Source: a virus
Lineage: Duplodnaviria; Heunggongvirae; Uroviricota; Caudoviricetes
DNA: 48,813 nucleotides
Strand: one strand, 5' to 3'
Virus record (IMG/VR): IMGVR_UViG_2718218305_000005
Coordinates: 1-48,813 of that record
A program made the translations under genes and the position numbers. Positions 1-36,092 of the stretch are shown here, one piece after another (within the stretch, counting starts at the first letter, position 1; each line of letters begins with the position of its first letter). The notes beneath the pieces were generated by a model. It was given only the letters and a program-made list of their open reading frames with translations. It was not told the origin of the DNA and made no database searches.

Positions 1-342
1 ATGATGAAAAAAAGTATTCTGGCGTTTCTGTTACTCACCAGTTCTGCAGCGGCGCTGGCTGCACCGCAGGTGATTACCGTCAGCCGTTTTGAAGTGGGTA
101 AAGACAAATGGGCGTTTAATCGCGAAGAGGTGATGCTGACTTGCCGACCGGGTAATGCTTTGTATGTCATCAACCCAAGTACCCTCGTGCAGTATCCTTT
201 AAACGATGTCGCACAGAAGGAAGTTGCCAGTGGGAAGACTAAAGCCCAACCCATTTCGGTGATTCAGATTGATGATCCCAACAATCCCGGCGAAAAAATG
301 AGTCTGGCACCGTTTATAGAACGAGCTGAAAAACTCTGTTAA
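1..342 (+). CDS. yebY: Periplasmic DUF2511-family protein YebY (host flank, outside prophage)
   Basis: 113-aa ORF with N-terminal signal peptide ([22 protein letters not shown]); recalled as E. coli YebY; lies left of the att repeat. Confidence 0.6.
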
Positions 343-734: not shown

Positions 735-1811
735 TCAGAGCAGTAAGTACGTTTTTTCTCTCTCATCAAGATACATTTTTGTTGTCTTCTCCGATGTGTG
801 GCCAAGTAGACGCTGAGCAAATTCTTCTCCACATGTTTCTTTGTACAATCGTCCAGCCAGGCTTCTGATCTCGTGAAAAGTTGGTGGGTTTTCACTGAAC
901 TGGATACCTGTTAATTTTCTGGCTGCGACAAATTTTTTTGTCAGGCCATCCGGGTGAATGCTGCCGTCAGGGCTGTTTTTTCTAATCCCGGCACTGATTA
1001 GATAATCTCCCCGGCTTACCAGGCGGCACTGTTCAACTACTGTACCAAGCCGTAGACCAGCGACAGGAAGGCTGAGTGACAGGGGGATAGCAATCATCAT
1101 TCCTGTCTTAATTTGCCTGATGTGGAGACGATCATCATAAATATCACTAAACCGCATATTCGTTATGTCTTCGCGACGTTGTCCTGTTACAAGGGCTAAA
1201 TCCATAGCTAATGGGAACCATGCCGGAAGTTGATCTGCTGCCTCCCTGATGCAGTTGTATGTCTTTAGTTTCAGTCGTTCTCTTGTAACTACTATTTTCG
1301 GTGCTCTTGTTGGCGTTACTGGATTTTGAGATATACGTCCTTCAACAATGGCCTCACGAAACATATCAGACAACACAGAACGCATTGATCCTGCCATTGT
1401 GTTTTTCCCTCCTTCAATCCACAAATCAAGAAACTCGGCAATATGGCGAGTGGTTATTTCTGTCAGTAAAATCTCTCCCAATTTTTCTTTTATTGTCTCC
1501 AGTTGATTTACCCGAATTTTATAAGTATTTCTGGACACTTTTCTCCTTATAAGAATCGTTTTGTAACGTTCAATCCAGTCTGCCATAGTAAATGAGTCGA
1601 ACCCTTTAAGTTTTTCAATTAAGGCAGCAGGAGAGTAGTTTTTGTATATATAATGATTTGCTTCAATTGCCTGCGCGATTGCATCTCTTCTTGAAATTTT
1701 ACCTAGTGTAAATTCTTCTTTCGTCAGAGGGTTGCGCCAGTAATATGCTTTGTCCCTCCTTCGATATGTTAAGTTTTTAGGCAAATTGGGATCGTATTTT
1801 TTCCGCTGCAT
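735..1811 (-). CDS. int: Tyrosine integrase (lambda Int family)
   Basis: 358-aa ORF resembling lambda Int (N-terminal arm-binding region, C-terminal ...HELRSL...LLGH...Y catalytic region); adjacent to attL. Confidence 0.95.
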
Positions 1812-2164: not shown

Positions 2165-2353
2165 TCACGAGGACAGAAGTTTCTCGCAATTAAAATTTAT
2201 CAGCTTTACTTTCTGCTCTCTGGACACGCCTGCTTCTTTTTTCCATGAGAGCATTTTTTCGCATTCTGATTTCGTTAATTTAGATTTTGAATATCTTGTC
2301 CAGTTAGTAGGAGTGCCACCTTCTTTTTCAATAGTGGCAGTTATTTTATACAT
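2165..2353 (-). CDS. Hypothetical small protein (Rac YdaC-like position)
   Basis: ORF immediately downstream of lar in the same operon; start set at the internal Met (MYKITAT) after the lar stop. Confidence 0.4.
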   Translation of the reverse strand: MYKITATIEKEGGTPTNWTRYSKSKLTKSECEKMLSWKKEAGVSREQKVKLINFNCEKLLSS

Positions 2354-2552
2354 GAACACCTCCATTATTATTTCCAGTAGTTCGTTTATTCCATCTTTCG
2401 AGTGCTTCTTTTTCACTTCCACCATAGCCAGTTCGGGATTCGCATCCGTTGCATTTTGCCCGGTAATATCCTGAAATTGCTTTCACCGTAACAGATGGAC
2501 AACCACAAAACGGACATGGTTTAACATCGTCATATCTCATAATTTTTGTCAT
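2346..2552 (-). CDS. lar: Restriction alleviation protein Lar/RalR family
   Basis: About 68 aa with CPFCG...C..C zinc-finger motifs typical of the Lar family; Rac-like position between recT and ydaC. Confidence 0.7.
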   Translation of the reverse strand: MTKIMRYDDVKPCPFCGCPSVTVKAISGYYRAKCNGCESRTGYGGSEKEALERWNKRTTGNNNGGVHV

Positions 2553-2726
2553 AAAAACTGTCTCACGTTGGCGGTGCATTACACCGCCAGGCTGAATTAT
2601 TCTTCTGAATTATCGATCACACTGTATTCCCCGGTTAATACAGAGGAGTCTGCCGGATCGATTGTCAGTGGTTCCTTTTCATCCATTGATACTGCACGCT
2701 GGATTTCAATTGAGACAGGCAGGTAT

Positions 2727-3407
2727 TTAAACAGGCGACGAATAGCCGTTTTTTTTTGCCATTTCTTCCCAGTGAGTTACCCATGGCCCGTTATTACCAG
2801 CCTTACTCTGGCTGCGCACCAGTTCAATCTGTTTGCGCGTCATAACTTCAAATTGAGTCCCTCCGTCTTTCAGTCTTGCGACAGCATAGACGTGGGTCAC
2901 TGGTGCATCTTCGTTTTCTCCCGGGCGGTGTATTAACTTTTCATCAAGGCCAAATTCAAAACTAAACTCGTCACCTTCACGGACAACACGGGCTGACAGG
3001 CTGGCGATTTGACCAGAACGGCGAGCCAGATCAATCATGCCGCGATAACCAATGATTAGCTGAACGTTCTTTTTACCGCTCTTTTCGTTTTTATTACCAA
3101 AAGGCAGTAAATATGCGTGACCGAGGGCGCTACCTGGCTCAAGGCCGAGCTGTGAACACTGAACGATCGCACTGACAAAACTCATGGTGTCACAGTTTCC
3201 TAGCGCCGGAACCTTACGAATTTCTGTGGTGGCGATACGTATCATTCGTTCAGCCGTCATATGGCGTGGGAGAGCTGCTGCCAGTTGCTCTTTCATTGAT
3301 GGCTGATTAATAAAGCTGATCACGTCGTTATTTTTTACTGCTGCTGGTGCACGGTTTCCCTGGGTTTTTTGCAGATCGGCTTTTGCGATAGGTGGTTGCT
3401 TAGTCAT
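2727..3407 (-). CDS. recT: Recombinase RecT (C-terminus altered by an apparent +1 frameshift in an A9 tract)
   Basis: Matches recalled Rac RecT from [14 protein letters not shown] onward; after ...EEMAKK the frame changes at a 9-nt homopolymer (2749..2757) and the remaining RecT C-terminus continues in another frame to 2597. Confidence 0.85.
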
Positions 3408-6000
3408 TTGCATACTCCTTAGCCCAGCGGGGCAGTGATAACGTTTTAATAGCTGGCCATTCATCGGTATTCAGGCAGTCAGCCAGGGTCCTCAGATTGC
3501 GGTGATATTCCTGCTGGCCTGCCAGTTTTGCTTCTTCGCCCATCATGAAAATCTCAACCGGGTAACGTCCGCATTCAACAGTTGTGCTGGCAACCAGAAA
3601 AACGAAAGTTGGCAGCACGCCAAACTGTGCTTCATAACCGTCACTGTAGAATGCATCCTGAACGTGATAGCGGTAGTCGTAATAAGCCGTTTTGAATCGT
3701 TGAATATCCGCTGTGGTTTTCACGTCCATGATCCAGTGAAATTCAGGAATAATTTTGTCCGGACGGCACCGACACAAAATTCCTGTTTCAGGATCTTCCC
3801 AGTAAATTGATGATTCAGCGTGTCCGGCGCTTTCAACAAGCCATTGACCCAGCGGCAAAGCCATAACGCTCTGATACATGAGTTCAATTTTCCGGCCTTC
3901 TTCGGCAGTGATAACCGTTTTTCCTGTGCTTGCGCATTCCATCAGAAACGCTTTCTCCTCTTCTTTTCCGGCGGTTGTACGGCGGTTAAATTCAGGTGCC
4001 ACGATAAAGCGGTTACTGAATTCTTCCGGTTCAAGTACACGGCAGTGGAAAGCGGTTCCTAAATCGAGCGTTTTTGTCTTTGTGGTGTCCACTGGGGCAT
4101 TTTTACGCCACAAATACAGAGCCGGAGTATCAGCAATGTCGTCGAGCTGAGACTTACTGACACCGGGACCCGCGTGGTAATTCTCATTCGAAATTCCGTA
4201 ATAAATACCAGGCTCTATGTCTCCTGCGATTACGGGATCTGCGACTTCGCCAGTTTCATCATTGCAATCGCGATGCGGATCGCTGCCAGCATTCTCATTG
4301 TGCGGATGTTCAGCGCCTTCCATTTCCTCCGGATCATTTTCCTTAGCTTCAACCTGACTCTCTTCATCGAATGTTTCCTGGTATGTTGCGTCGCCCATCA
4401 CCGCACCACAGTCAGGGCAGTTATCCCCGCCAGTCTGGCCGCAGGCATTGCAGGCTATTTCCGGTTCCTGTTGCACTACTGGCTCAGGTTGATTCATATC
4501 TGGGCTGGTTTTTTCCGTTTCTGGCTGGTTCTGGTACACACAATCGCGAGTCTGGATCCCCTTTACCCATTTCGGATCGTTCGGGTCGCTAATTCCGTCA
4601 ACAAATTCACCACGTGATGCAGCAAGCAATTTATCGGCATCGACAGGATTTTTTGATGGAATGTTTTTCCGGGCTTCATGGAGTTCTGCCCGCAGTTCCT
4701 GATATTTCGCATCAACAGAATTTACCTGTGACTGAGCATCCAGCGGCTGCGTGTCCTGATGATGTTCAGTTGCGTCCGGTTCCATTGTTTCAGCCTCTCC
4801 CTGTTCAACTGCCGTTGTTCCAGATGGTTGCGGTTTTTCTTCATCATCCTGTTTTCCTTCTTCTGTTACTCGCTGCGGCATCGGGGCAGAGGAGCGACCG
4901 CAGGCAATATCCACGATTTCCGGATCAGGGTTGGCATGATCGGTTTCAGTCAGTACTTTGTTCAGATATTCAGTGACGTGCGCGGGGATGACCTCGATCC
5001 CAATTGGTGCTTCTTTTACGGACGCAACCACGATGGCGCGGGAATAATCCAGCCCGCCAGGCATGGTGATGAATTTGTCGCGGAAAACAGAAAAGGGCGG
5101 TTTATTTTCAGCGATAATTTCCTCAATGCGTTTAGCGTGTGCCGGATGAAGGTTATAGATGTCCAGATCCATTGAACGGGCCAGTACGCCAGTGGCTACG
5201 TCGCGCGCCAGTGACGTCAGATCGTGTACGAAACCTTCGCCGCGATCGGTGAGGTTTCCGCCGCCAGCATTAGCACCGGAAGCCGTGCGAGTGATGTGTG
5301 AAACACGATTACCCTTCATCCACTCTTTTGTCAGCAGTCCTCGATCGGTGTAGTCAGCGTTCAGGTATGCTTCGAAAAAAGCAGTTATCAGTCCCAGGTT
5401 TGAATTACCAGGATTAGGGAAAACTTTGTCAGTGTCACGAACCAGTTTGTGGAGTTCGCGAATTTCCAGCGGGTCGAGCAGGCTGGTTTTGTGGGAAACA
5501 GCCAGGGCAGTAACAGCCGGTAGTTCTTCAGCCCGAGCAATGTGTAATGCCTGGAGTCCGTCGCGTGAAACGTGCGTTACCGGTTTTTCGCTGCCGTGTT
5601 GAGCAAGCCAACGAATGGGCAGTTCCTGGCCAGAAATTGGGAGTAGCATATTCTCCTCAATCTCAGTCATGTCTTCGCCGTTGACGTTGGTATTGCCTTG
5701 ATAATGAGCGTTGTCTGGTGCTGCTCCCGGTTTTAGTTCCCATGTCATGGAGTCTTTGCTGAGTTGATAGCGTTCACTCCAGGTAAAATCGATCTCACCT
5801 TCAGCGGGCAGGTCATTAACGACAGGAAAATTCGTGGCAACAGCTTTAAAATAGCTGCTCAGTTTTTTACCTGACTTAACGATCAGGTAGTCCAGAGTGG
5901 CACAGGTCGATTCAAAATCGTTGCTTGCCCACAGGACGACGTCAGGTTCACCGGATGATTTTTTCGCTTTCCGTAACAGGAAGAGTGGTTTTGTGCTCAT
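3400..6000 (-). CDS. recE: Exodeoxyribonuclease VIII RecE
   Basis: 866-aa ORF matching recalled Rac RecE in length and sequence; upstream of and overlapping recT. Confidence 0.95.
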
Positions 6001-6101: not shown

Positions 6102-6377
6102 TCAGATTTCACCTTTTAATTTCATTGCAATTAGAGTTGCCAGAAATTCGGCTTTTTTTTCTGCGGGCAGATTCTTTCCGATATGCACCAGGCACATTTT
6201 TTTGACACCTTCATCAAGTGTTTTTACGTTGCCTGATGGACCATCGATATCAACCACAGTGAATGGGGTTTCTTTATTTTCTGTTTTAATTACGTAGCCA
6301 ATGCGCTTTCCTTCCAGATTCACCTCGTGAACAATGTCATCGGTAGTTACAACAGTGGCTTCATAATTGGTAATCAT
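6102..6377 (-). CDS. racC: RacC-like protein
   Basis: 91-aa ORF (MITNYEATVVTTDDIVHEV...) matching recalled Rac RacC. Confidence 0.8.
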   Translation of the reverse strand: MITNYEATVVTTDDIVHEVNLEGKRIGYVIKTENKETPFTVVDIDGPSGNVKTLDEGVKKMCLVHIGKNLPAEKKAEFLATLIAMKLKGEI

Positions 6378-6622: not shown

Positions 6623-6843
6623 CACCATGACTCCGCCTTTACAGGTAAACCATCACGACCGAGGAAGACTTTAATCATGCGGTCAGTAATGCATGTTTTT
6701 GTGGTCAGGTTACGAATATATAGTTTTCGCTTTTTAATATTGTTTGCCGAGGCAATATATGTCCGGCCTTCATGAAGAACATAATCGCCAGGAGTCACAC
6801 ACTGACGTGGTATTTCATCAGTTCCGAAGTGATGTGCAATCAT
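6622..6843 (-). CDS. kilR: KilR-like cell-division inhibitor
   Basis: 73-aa [25 protein letters not shown]... matching recalled Rac KilR; Rac gene order. Confidence 0.8.
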
Positions 6844-32584: not shown

Positions 32585-33007
32585 ATGTTTCTGAAAACAG
32601 AACAATTTGAATATAACGGTGTGTCCGTCACGCTGTCGGAGCTGTCTGCGCTGCAGCGGTTTGATTATATGAAGTTTGTTTCAGACGCAGCACAACAGAA
32701 GACAACGGAGCATAATGCCGTGCACATTAACCAGCGATATCTGGAAACGGCATCCCTGCTTGTGGCGATGTCGCTATGGCATTCCCATTCCCTCAAAGGC
32801 ACTCTGGCCTCTCCGGAGACAGAGATGCAGCAGATCCGCCGTGAAGTGATGCTGGGATGGCCTGCTGATGCACTGAATCAGGCAACGAACCGGGTGCTTT
32901 ATCTTTCAGGTATGCTGGATAACCGGCACGATGCCGATCCTGAACCAACCGGGAAAACAGAAGCGACTGAGCCGGTAACATCAAAAAAGCATTCGAAGGC
33001 GAGCTGA
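32585..33007 (+). CDS. Tail assembly chaperone gpG
   Basis: MFLKTEQFEYNGVSVTLSELSALQR... resembles recalled lambda G. Confidence 0.85.
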   Translation: MFLKTEQFEYNGVSVTLSELSALQRFDYMKFVSDAAQQKTTEHNAVHINQRYLETASLLVAMSLWHSHSLKGTLASPETEMQQIRREVMLGWPADALNQATNRVLYLSGMLDNRHDADPEPTGKTEATEPVTSKKHSKAS

Positions 33008-33342
33008 ACTTTGTCCTGAAACTGGCGCGTGAGATGGGGAGAGCCGACTGGCGCGCCATGCTTGCCGGGATGACATCCACCGAATATGCCGACTGGCGAC
33101 GTTTTTACTGCACGCATTATTTTCAGGATACCCAGCTGGATATGCATTTTTCCGGGCTGACGTACGCCGTACTCAGCCTGTTTTTTTGCGATCCGGATAT
33201 GCATCCGGCGGATTTCAGCCTGTTCGCTCCGGAGGCAGAGGAAGGGCAGGCGGAGACGCCGGACGAAAATGATGTACTGATGCAGAAGGCGGCGGGCCTC
33301 GCCGGTGGAGTCCGTTTCGGGGAGGAGGGAAGGAGGTTGTGA
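32585..33342 (+). CDS. Tail assembly chaperone G-T fusion made by programmed -1 ribosomal frameshift
   Basis: Slippery heptamer A_AAA_AAG at 32983..32989 near the end of G; the -1 frame continues open to 33342. Confidence 0.65.
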
Positions 33343-33385: not shown

Positions 33386-36092
33386 ATGGCAGGTAATTTT
33401 GCCGATCTGACAGCCGTGCTGACACTGGATTCTGCCCGTTTTTCTGAAGAGGCAGCGCGGGTAAAAAAAGAGCTGGGTGAAACCAGTGCGCTTGCTGATT
33501 TGATGTCCGGGAAAGTCAGTCAGTCTTTCAGAAAACAGGCTGATGCTGCTGAGCAGAGTCTGAGCCGACAGGCGCTGGCTGCACAAAAAGCCGGGATATC
33601 AGTCGGACAGTATAAGGCTGCCATGCGCACACTGCCCGCACAGTTCACGGATATTGTCACTCAGCTTGCCGGTGGTCAGAATCCCTTCCTTATCATGCTG
33701 CAGCAGGGGGGGCAGATCAGCGATTCATTCGGTGGACCGCTCAGCCTGCTTACCCTGCTGAAGGAGGAACTTCTCGGGATCAGGGATGCCTCTGAATCAT
33801 CAGAGGAGTCGCTGTCAGATACGGCAAATGCACTGGCTGAAAATGCCCGGAATGCCGGTGAGCTGGGACGATTTATGTCGGTGGCCCGTGTGGCGGCAGG
33901 TGGCGGGGTTGCCGTACTGGCCGCGCTTGCTGCCGCCGCCTGGCAGGCAGAGCAGGCTGACCGGGCCTTATTGCGTTCACTGACCCTGACCGGAGGGGCT
34001 GCTGCCACCACAACGGCAGAATTGTGGAAAATGGCCGGGGTGATCAGCGATGAAGCCGGTGGTGGTATCAGACAGGCGGCAGAAAATCTGGCCCGTCTGG
34101 CAGAAAGCGGGAAATATACCGCCGGGCAGCTACGGATCATGGGGGAAACCTCTCAGAGATGGCTGCAGACGGTGGGGGACGATGCCGGGAAGGTGGAAAA
34201 AGCCTTTGAAGGGATTGCAGCAGATCCGGTGAAGGCGCTGGCCTCCCTGAATCAGCAGTATAACTTCCTGAGCGTTTCCCAGTTACGCCATATTGATGAG
34301 CTTGAGCGCACGAAAGGTAAACAGGCTGCGGTGACGGAGGCGATGTCCCTGTTTGCGGATGTCATGAATGCACGTCTGGAGCAACTTGATAAAGCGGCCA
34401 CGCCGGTGGAAAAAATCTGGGACGATGTTAAAACCTGGACTTCTGACGCATGGGCATGGATAGGTGATCATACACTGGGGGCACTCAGTCTGATCACTGA
34501 CGTGGTGGCAGGAACCGTTGAACAGGTGAAGCTGCTGCTTGTGCAGGGGGATCTGGCGCTGGCTGAATTTATTCAGTCAGCCTGGGAAACGACAAAGAAT
34601 GTGCCCGGCGTTGGTGCGTTGTTTGGTGAACTGGCAGAAGAGAACCGCGTATTTATTGAGAAAACAAAACGTGATGAACTGGCGCTGAGAAAATCCATTG
34701 CGGAACGGGATGCGCGTATACGCCAGGGGGAAATGGGGTACATCAACCGTTCGCGGTGCAACAGGCGTCAGCAAAGGTCCGGGGCAGCAGGAAGCCGTCA
34801 GCCGTCTGGCTGAAGAGCTGACAGGTAAAAAGCATACATCACCGAAAACGCGCTCTGCCGGGGAGAGGGAAGAGGAGCAGGCAAGAGAGGCTCTGCTTGC
34901 CCTTGAAGCTGAGCTCAGGACGCTGGAAAAACACAGCGGTGCGAATGAGAAAATCAGCCGGCAGCGCCGTGATTTATGGAAGGCGGAAAGTCAGTATGCG
35001 GTCCTGAAAGAGGCTGCCACGAAACGACAGTTATCTGAGCAGGAAAAATCCCTGCTGGCGCATAAAGACGAGACGCTGGAGTACAAACGCCAGCTGGCTG
35101 AGCTGGGCGACAAGGTTGAATACCAGAAACGCCTGAATGAGCTGGCACAGCAGGCGGTGCGGTTTGAAGAGCAGCAGAGCGCGAAGCAGGCCGCCATCAG
35201 CGCAAAAGCCCGCGGTCTCACTGACCGTCAGGCGCAGCGGGAGTCTGAAGCGCAGCGTCTTCGGGACGTGTACGGTGATAATCCGCAGGCGCTGGCCCGG
35301 GTCACCGGGGCACTGAAACAGACATGGGCGGATGAAGACATGCTGCGCGGTGACTGGCTGGCCGGGCTGAAGTCCGGCTGGGGGGAGTGGGCGGAAAGTG
35401 CGACGGACAGTTTTTCGCAGGTTAAAAGTGCTGCCACGCAGACCTTTGACGGTATTGCACAGAATATGGCGGCGATGCTGACCGGTGCAGAGGCAGACTG
35501 GCGGGGATTCACCCGTTCGGTGCTGTCCATGATGACAGAAATCCTGCTTAAACAGGCCATGGTGGGCATTGTCGGGCGTATCGGCAGCGCCATTGGCGGG
35601 GTTGTTGGAGGTGGTGTAACGGCTTCCTCGGGGACGGCCATTGAGGCTGCGGCAGCGAACTTCCATTTTGCGACCGGCGGATTTACGGGAACCGGCGGCA
35701 AATATGAGCCTGCGGGGATAGTTCACCGCGGGGAGTTTGTTTTCACGAAAGAGGCAACCAGCCGGATAGGTGTGGGGAATCTTTACCGTCTGATGCGTGG
35801 CTATGCGGAAGGGGGGTATGTGGGTGGTGCCGGAAGTCCGGCGCAGATGCGGCGGGCGGAAGGTATTAATTTTAATCAGAACAATCACGTGGTGATTCAG
35901 AACGACGGCACCAACGGACAGGCGGGGCCGCAGCTGATGAAGGCGGTGTATGACATGGCCCGCAAGGGGGCGCAGGATGAGATTCAGGCGCAGTTGCGTG
36001 ATGCGGTATGTTATCGGGGAGCGGGCGATGAAAACATTTCGCTGGAAAGTGAAGCCGGATATGGAGGTGAACTCGCAGCCGTCGGTGCGTGA
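33386..36092 (+). pseudogene. Tape measure protein gpH-like, interrupted by a +1 frameshift in a G4 run near 34735
   Basis: Two ORFs (33377..34813 and 34698..36092) together make a lambda-H-sized protein; removing one G from ATGGGG at 34735..34738 joins them seamlessly. Confidence 0.8.

Follow-up and report, generated by a model that had tools for sequence, protein, structure and literature searches.

A one-base expansion of an A8 tract, real or apparent, frameshifts recT in a Rac-like E. coli prophage beside yebY

A single extra base in a run of As separates the recT gene of one prophage sequence from a full-length annealing protein gene, and raises the question of whether the gene is truly broken. 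The window, by which we mean the whole 48,813-nucleotide (48.8-kb) stretch of viral DNA that was analyzed, is a lambdoid, Rac-like prophage inserted beside the host gene yebY. Three explanations of the frameshift had been put forward in the original prediction, namely a sequencing or assembly error, a real pseudogenising mutation, or a slippage-prone tract, and these turned out to be the right set of alternatives to weigh. The features that bear on the question are as follows.

1..342: host gene yebY, on the attachment side of the prophage
735..1811, minus strand: int, followed, reading from int toward recT, by xis, DUF1187 and ralR/lar
2346..2579, minus strand: ralR/lar (Lar_restr_allev), downstream of recT and followed by DUF1187, xis and int
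2597..2748, minus strand: 3' remainder of recT in the +1 frame, uninterrupted, ending in DNSEE and a stop, every base the same as in the clone-mates described below
2727..3407, minus strand: recT frame-0 open reading frame, 226 aa, consisting of 219 RecT residues plus NGYSSPV
2749..2757, minus strand: A9 homopolymer at the Lys-Lys of A-K-K-T, with one base more than the A8 found in every clone-mate
3400..6000, minus strand: recE (exonuclease VIII, 866 aa; Exonuc_VIII and DUF3799), the partner exonuclease gene

The recT start codon (ATG, 3407..3405) lies inside the end of recE (...AAT GAC TAA), an 8-nt overlap that is the usual recE-recT arrangement, and the two adjacent genes share an operon. 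Beyond recE lie kilR and ydaE-like genes and then the immunity region, and the plus strand carries replication, lysis, head and tail genes, an IS3-family element, an NleC-like effector gene and a metallophosphatase gene. The last two lie at the right end, as a Peptidase_M85 (NleC-like type III effector) gene at 46162..47148 and the metallophosphatase gene at 47878..48537. With these genes at its right end, the prophage probably had as host an E. coli of the attaching-effacing or STEC type; the window contains neither stx nor tRNA genes. The IS3-family element is a 1308-bp insertion at 44299..45606 that is absent from the closest late-region relatives (L141 and L144), is about 96% identical to IS3-family (IS629/IS1203-like) copies at other loci, and carries two minus-strand open reading frames, 45228..45554 (108 aa) and 44341..45231 (296 aa). 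It disrupts a small tail-fibre C-terminal gene; such an insertion cannot be a base-calling error and is undoubtedly a real lesion in the prophage.

Read on the minus strand, the site in recT runs ...TGG GAA GAA ATG GCA AAA AAA AAC GGC TAT TCG TCG CCT GTT TAA, with the A9 run at 2757..2749. Frame-0 translation from the ATG at 3407 gives ...THWEEMAKK followed by the seven codons of NGYSSPV and a stop at 2729..2727, a product of 226 aa. The frame had been predicted to match RecT as far as EEMAKK, to shift in the A9 run and to stop after seven codons, and translation confirms this; the corresponding T9 is present in the plus-strand letters at 2749..2757. The +1 frame from 2755 is uninterrupted to a stop at 2599..2597 and encodes the rest of the RecT C-terminus, which had been expected to be intact in the next frame down to 2597. 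In silico deletion of one A yields a 269-aa protein that is the same as the RecT called in the clone-mate L128, and the A8 of the clone-mates likewise encodes a 269-aa RecT, in agreement with the expectation that A8 would give a full-length gene. No other homopolymer of nine or more bases occurs within the 48.8 kb.

The identification of the gene as recT stands on a match to the RecT family profile (PF03837), on homology to the solved RecT of Listeria innocua (LiRecT, PDB 7UB2), and on the PGAP naming of the orthologue beside recE. Both the PF03837 domain and the overlap of recT with the end of recE are shared with the RecET module of Rac-type lambdoid prophages, and among RecT/Red-beta annealing proteins the first 219 residues are those of the common 269-aa E. 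coli RecT (at least 1000 contigs). In the truncated product the profile is matched with E=1.8e-47 over residues 53-219, spanning profile positions 1-163 of 198, and in the repaired A8 version the domain occupies residues 53-244 and profile positions 1-187; the A9 allele does not hold a complete core domain in a single reading frame. The core modelled for LiRecT comprises residues 34-224. W216 and I218 belong to the lower hydrophobic core at the interface between subunits, and a role in binding SSB and other partner proteins has been proposed for residues 225-271 (PMC9772228). In the alignment A-K-K-T is identical in both proteins, A-K-K falls just ahead of the lost segment, and the LiRecT counterpart of that segment is part of the 7UB2 model; W216 and I218 align to Y228 and P230 of RecT. 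Unlike LiRecT, the A9 product is without the helix aligned to LiRecT 207-224, which contains W216 and I218, and without the C-terminal tail. The 226-aa product thus ends ahead of the final helix of the core, with part of the filament interface and the entire C-terminal tail missing, and because of these losses the A9 allele, if read literally, would be null or severely hypomorphic.

Close relatives of the window offer the comparison of tract length that had been proposed as a check. The exact integrase of the window occurs in 689 index blocks of public assemblies and its exact RecE in 475, which places the window in a heavily sequenced clone. We compared ten clone-mate neighbourhoods with the exact integrase or the exact RecE, and all ten carry A8 and a 269-aa RecT. 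These sequences are near-identical to the window, with 0-1 SNP over 8-14 kb: no mismatch was seen in L128, L129, L136 or L137 over the 8.2-11.7 kb aligned, and a single one in L132 over 14 kb. Apart from a gap of one base at 2749, each clone-mate compared differs from the window little or not at all. Thus, the extra A is private to the window sequence. There is no private SNP in the first 14 kb of the window, and the out-of-frame 3' portion of recT shows no decay relative to the clone-mates. Searches further afield returned no 100% match to the window among 5,426 complete E. coli genomes and no close match in the INPHARED phages, and for the window's lineage none of the exact products of the recT frameshift, the tape-measure frameshift described below or the IS-truncated tail fibre is on record. 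A search for clone-mates of the late region, anchored on protein L, gpJ, the tail fibre and a 277-aa early protein, found only other prophages (at most 97-99% identical) or the assembly L144. The latter (L144/L149, GCA_026134785.1), a single 5.5-Mb contig that carries the exact gpJ of the window, is an error-prone long-read assembly: it has several indels relative to the window at places where L141, as far as it extends, sides with the window, as well as an internal tape-measure deletion (window 34127..35799), and it is a poor reference.

The extra A would be a sporadic, non-programmed one-base expansion of the A8 tract, and could have arisen in at least two ways. First, it may stem from a wrongly called homopolymer in the consensus of an assembly that was finished or made from long reads. 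All of the short-read clone-mate contigs end inside the prophage and the window spans all 48.8 kb including the IS copy, from which we infer that it came from an assembly of this kind. The A9 is also a singleton among near-identical genomes and is accompanied by other private one-base indels in the same assembly. In the tape-measure gene (33386..36092), for which the intact 870-881-aa relatives L138, L141 and L150 served as references, an extra G at 34755 (GCGGTG versus GCGTG) moves the reading from frame 2 to frame 3 and splits the gene into 33386..34813 and 34698..36092, and a missing G at 36002 (GATGCGG versus GATGGCGG) alters the C-terminal end. The extra G was found in 0 of 628 complete-genome records with that local sequence, the missing G is the only difference from the two records of the same local haplotype, and neither occurs in any complete E. 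coli genome searched; both indels are private with respect to complete genomes, in a region that no clone-mate covers. Private differences that consist of indels only, where the first 14 kb hold not one private SNP, have the look of consensus error. In view of these indels and of the apparent long-read or finished assembly we lean slightly toward a consensus miscall, to which we give an even chance, making it slightly likelier than a real change in the DNA. Explanations other than an artefact or a real, recent slippage together have little probability.

Second, the extra A may be a genuine and very recent replication-slippage event, A8 to A9, in this isolate, which pseudogenised recT in an already decaying prophage. 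We consider this a strong contender, at somewhat less than an even chance. Homopolymer length does vary among the short-read clone-mates: another 8-nt run, at 6153..6160, is T8 but T7 in L128 and L136, and the A8 at 11321..11328 is A7 in L134. Since the clone-mates differ at such runs, real homopolymer indels make up a sizeable share of the variation in the clone. (With T7 at 6153, a 91-aa open reading frame upstream of recE is no longer called in L128 and L136; L134 also has one additional unit of the 12-bp AGAGGAAGAGGA repeat at 10058.) At all five remaining runs of 8 nt within the first 14 kb the window itself has the length of the clone majority, and a split-gene scan that used 2,631 open reading frames from relatives as probes found only recT and the tape-measure gene to be split in 48.8 kb. 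The assembly is thus not grossly error-prone. Long-read consensus errors are more often deletions, and two of the three private one-base indels of the window are insertions. Decay of this prophage is visible in the private IS3-family insertion and the broken tape-measure gene, prophage genes with frameshifts are often met in E. coli genomes of high quality, and, if the mutation is real, loss of RecT would be cheap to the host, for which the RecET module is of importance only once the prophage is induced. Frameshift alleles of the A8 to A9 type are also a recurrent class in E. coli (PMC1088944). Against a real mutation stand the singleton status of A9 beside ten A8 clone-mates with no accompanying private SNP in 14 kb, the co-occurrence of two private non-homopolymer one-base indels found in no complete genome, and the fact that one other lineage is the only one for which exactly this 226-aa product has been recorded.

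That lineage bears on both readings, as the same A8 to A9 change is fixed in it. Only one complete genome carries A9, that of E. coli 2014C-3050 (NZ_CP027472.1, AAF93_RS05070), in which PGAP annotates recT as a "frameshifted" pseudogene, and the 226-aa A9 product is also found in the Logan assemblies of SRR26149259 and SRR19513030. The three datasets represent one lineage, with an identity of 99.95% or more across 7.6 kb that take in host flank, and differ from one another by true SNPs. The recurrence of A9 in three datasets separated by true SNPs shows that A9 is real in the 2014C-3050 lineage, and such a recurrence in an independent lineage marks the tract as slippage-prone. Within this lineage 2014C-3050 (L002) alone has a CGT to TGT change (Arg to Cys) in the out-of-frame part of recT, at position 6710 (position 1636 of L003), a single observation that fits relaxed constraint after the frameshift. 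The site, the A9, the 226-aa product and the gene order recE-recT-ralR-DUF1187-xis-int beside yebY are all the same as in the window. The lineage is a different one, however, with 97.9% identity between 2014C-3050 and the window over 5.3 kb, and with 68 SNPs separating its Logan relatives from the window in 4.3 kb. Its A9 is corroborated by three datasets, whereas no clone-mate shares the A9 of the window. At 2618 and 2853, the recT SNPs on either side of the tract, the window has the alleles of its own clone. Given these alleles and the 68 SNPs, the two A9 alleles would most simply be independent events. Import of A9 by recombination from the 2014C-3050 lineage was considered and is unlikely, as only a patch of less than 235 nt could have been brought in between SNPs 2618 and 2853.

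Miscalling at the same tract also seems to be represented in public data. The sole A7 copy in IMG/VR (L031, IMGVR_UViG_2526164664_000030) is 99.94% identical to the 2014C-3050 lineage and departs from it, within 7.9 kb, at a single SNP and at three homopolymers that are shorter, one of them the tract, with A7 in place of A9. This A7 looks like homopolymer under-calling rather than biology. Real slippage and miscalling thus both occur at the recT tract in public data.

That this tract exists at all is a matter of codon usage. The intact allele writes the conserved A-K-K-T as GCA AAA AAA ACG, and there is an A8 tract only because Ala-Lys-Lys-Thr is encoded in this way. Most recT alleles use AAG for the first Lys and so break the run. 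A pattern scan that permitted any 6-12 bases at the tract site found, among IMG/VR loci, 88 with AAAGAAAA, 30 with A8 and 1 with A7; all four matches among the species-representative genomes of GTDB were AAAGAAAA, and metagenome contigs gave 45 with AAAGAAAA and 3 with A8. Pooled over these three sources, there were 137 AAAGAAAA, 33 A8, 1 A7 and 0 A9, and the exact A9 pattern was absent from IMG/VR, the JGI/ENA metagenomes and the GTDB representatives. Among complete E. coli genomes with this local allele, A9 was present in 1 of 208 and the other 207 were in frame. Contigs encoding the exact products of this allele numbered at least 1000 for A8, 8 for A7 and 2-3 for A9, with A10 and A11 products absent from the product counts, so that off-length products make up roughly 1% of contigs or less. 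Since most alleles lack an uninterrupted run, the homopolymer is, judging from these comparisons, an accident of codon choice for a conserved peptide.

If the A9 is real, it could still permit some RecT synthesis as a leaky 'pseudo-pseudogene', in which RNA polymerase slippage would restore a fraction of the protein, so that RecT is down-tuned rather than lost. Addition of two As would give a 270-aa RecT, or removal of one A the 269-aa RecT, alongside the truncated form. In silico, an A11 version does restore the frame, with one extra Lys, 270 aa and an intact C-terminus. Such 'pseudo pseudogenes', in which an A8 is extended to a slippage-prone A9 and the open reading frame is restored by two As in the mRNA, have been described (PMC1088944), and both of their features, an A8 to A9 extension relative to intact orthologues and a frame restorable by non-templated A insertion, are found in silico for recT. 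The tract also reaches the length of about nine A or T that the literature gives as the threshold for RNA polymerase slippage: slippage is efficient in vivo at runs of 9 A/T, where one or more As are inserted in diminishing proportion (PMC5009743), and the 9A run of Yersinia pseudotuberculosis tssM3 yields 15-25% frameshifted product (PMC4256274). However, the commonest event, insertion of a single A, fails to restore the recT frame, and with E. coli RNA polymerase none of the poly(A) runs assayed was rescued through deletion (Koscielniak 2018, PMC6260861), with little slippage activity below 8 As (PMC6260861). Lambda N, which is relevant to a pL-type operon, inhibits deletion slippage (PMC6260861), and tract length is not conserved among recT alleles, which also counts against rescue. 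As single-A insertion is non-restoring and deletion is undetectable with E. coli RNA polymerase, any rescue of A9 recT would, by analogy with these systems, likely be small. We therefore regard a leaky gene as improbable. Equally doubtful is the idea that, if A9 is real, the A7/A8/A9 tract could work in prophages of this pathogenic-type E. coli clone as a heritable dimmer, setting the level of RecT relative to that of RecE.

The recT A9 resembles the cases of Baranov et al. 2005 (Genome Biol 6:R25) in the A8 to A9 extension and in a frame restorable by two As; it differs in being known from sequence alone, and in that the A9 itself may not be real, and recT is absent from the supplementary list of that study. 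With the programmed transcriptional slippage sites (9 or more As) of Thermus thermophilus dnaX, Y. pseudotuberculosis tssM3 and IS transposases it shares a sense-strand A9 in a coding region and an alternative C-terminus in another frame. In those systems homologues conserve the tract length and a two-product organisation, whereas the recT tract is usually interrupted or an in-frame A8. The conserved slippery tract and two-frame organisation of a recoding site are not seen in the pooled counts for recT. No stimulatory RNA structure was found near the site (fold z-score 0.31 versus shuffles) and no terminator-like hairpin at the tract on either strand. Slippage does not strictly need a stimulatory RNA element.

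The weakest proposal is that the tract is a selected phase-variation switch (a contingency locus) or a programmed ribosomal frameshift that controls prophage recombination, which we consider very improbable: A7, A8 and A9 versions do all occur in public data, but the majority of alleles break the run with a G, A7 and A9 products are rare beside A8 and at least one A7 case is artefact-like, no downstream structure or other stimulator was found at the tract, and the shift needed is +1/-2, while A-rich heptamers in E. coli favour -1. The frequent on/off variation in tract length within populations, and the upkeep of the tract by selection, that mark a contingency locus are not seen, with off-length products so scarce and the tract missing from the majority allele. 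The unconserved tract length and two-frame organisation rule against programmed recoding and selected phase variation alike, and a programmed frameshift, having neither a conserved tract nor a stimulator, was rejected. A role for the plus-strand T9 as an antisense terminator was rejected as well, as there is no hairpin and the run is interrupted in most alleles. Elsewhere in the window, the tail-assembly chaperone gene G (32585..33007) carries a -1 slippery heptamer, A_AAA_AAG, at 32983..32989, 17 nt before its stop, from which the -1 frame is open into the T open reading frame (33034..33342). Here we probably have the programmed frameshift, conserved in such phages, that joins G and T (G/GT), a genuine recoding site that contrasts with recT; the lambda-type GGGAAAG motif is not present at the G/T junction.

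The extra A in the window is thus an ordinary, non-programmed homopolymer frameshift, real or apparent, in a well-known prophage gene. Such an allele is already annotated in a public genome (2014C-3050), and the class to which it belongs has been described before (Baranov 2005). If the A9 is an error, recT in this prophage is to be annotated as intact. If it is real, the yebY prophage would be without its single-strand annealing protein, with less RecET-type recombination after induction, and would have taken one further step in prophage decay. In either case, the writing of A-K-K-T as GCA-AAA-AAA-ACG makes for a recurrent hotspot of indels and miscalls in one recT allele family, which is relevant to counts of recT pseudogenes in E. 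coli surveillance genomes and is otherwise mainly a matter of annotation hygiene.
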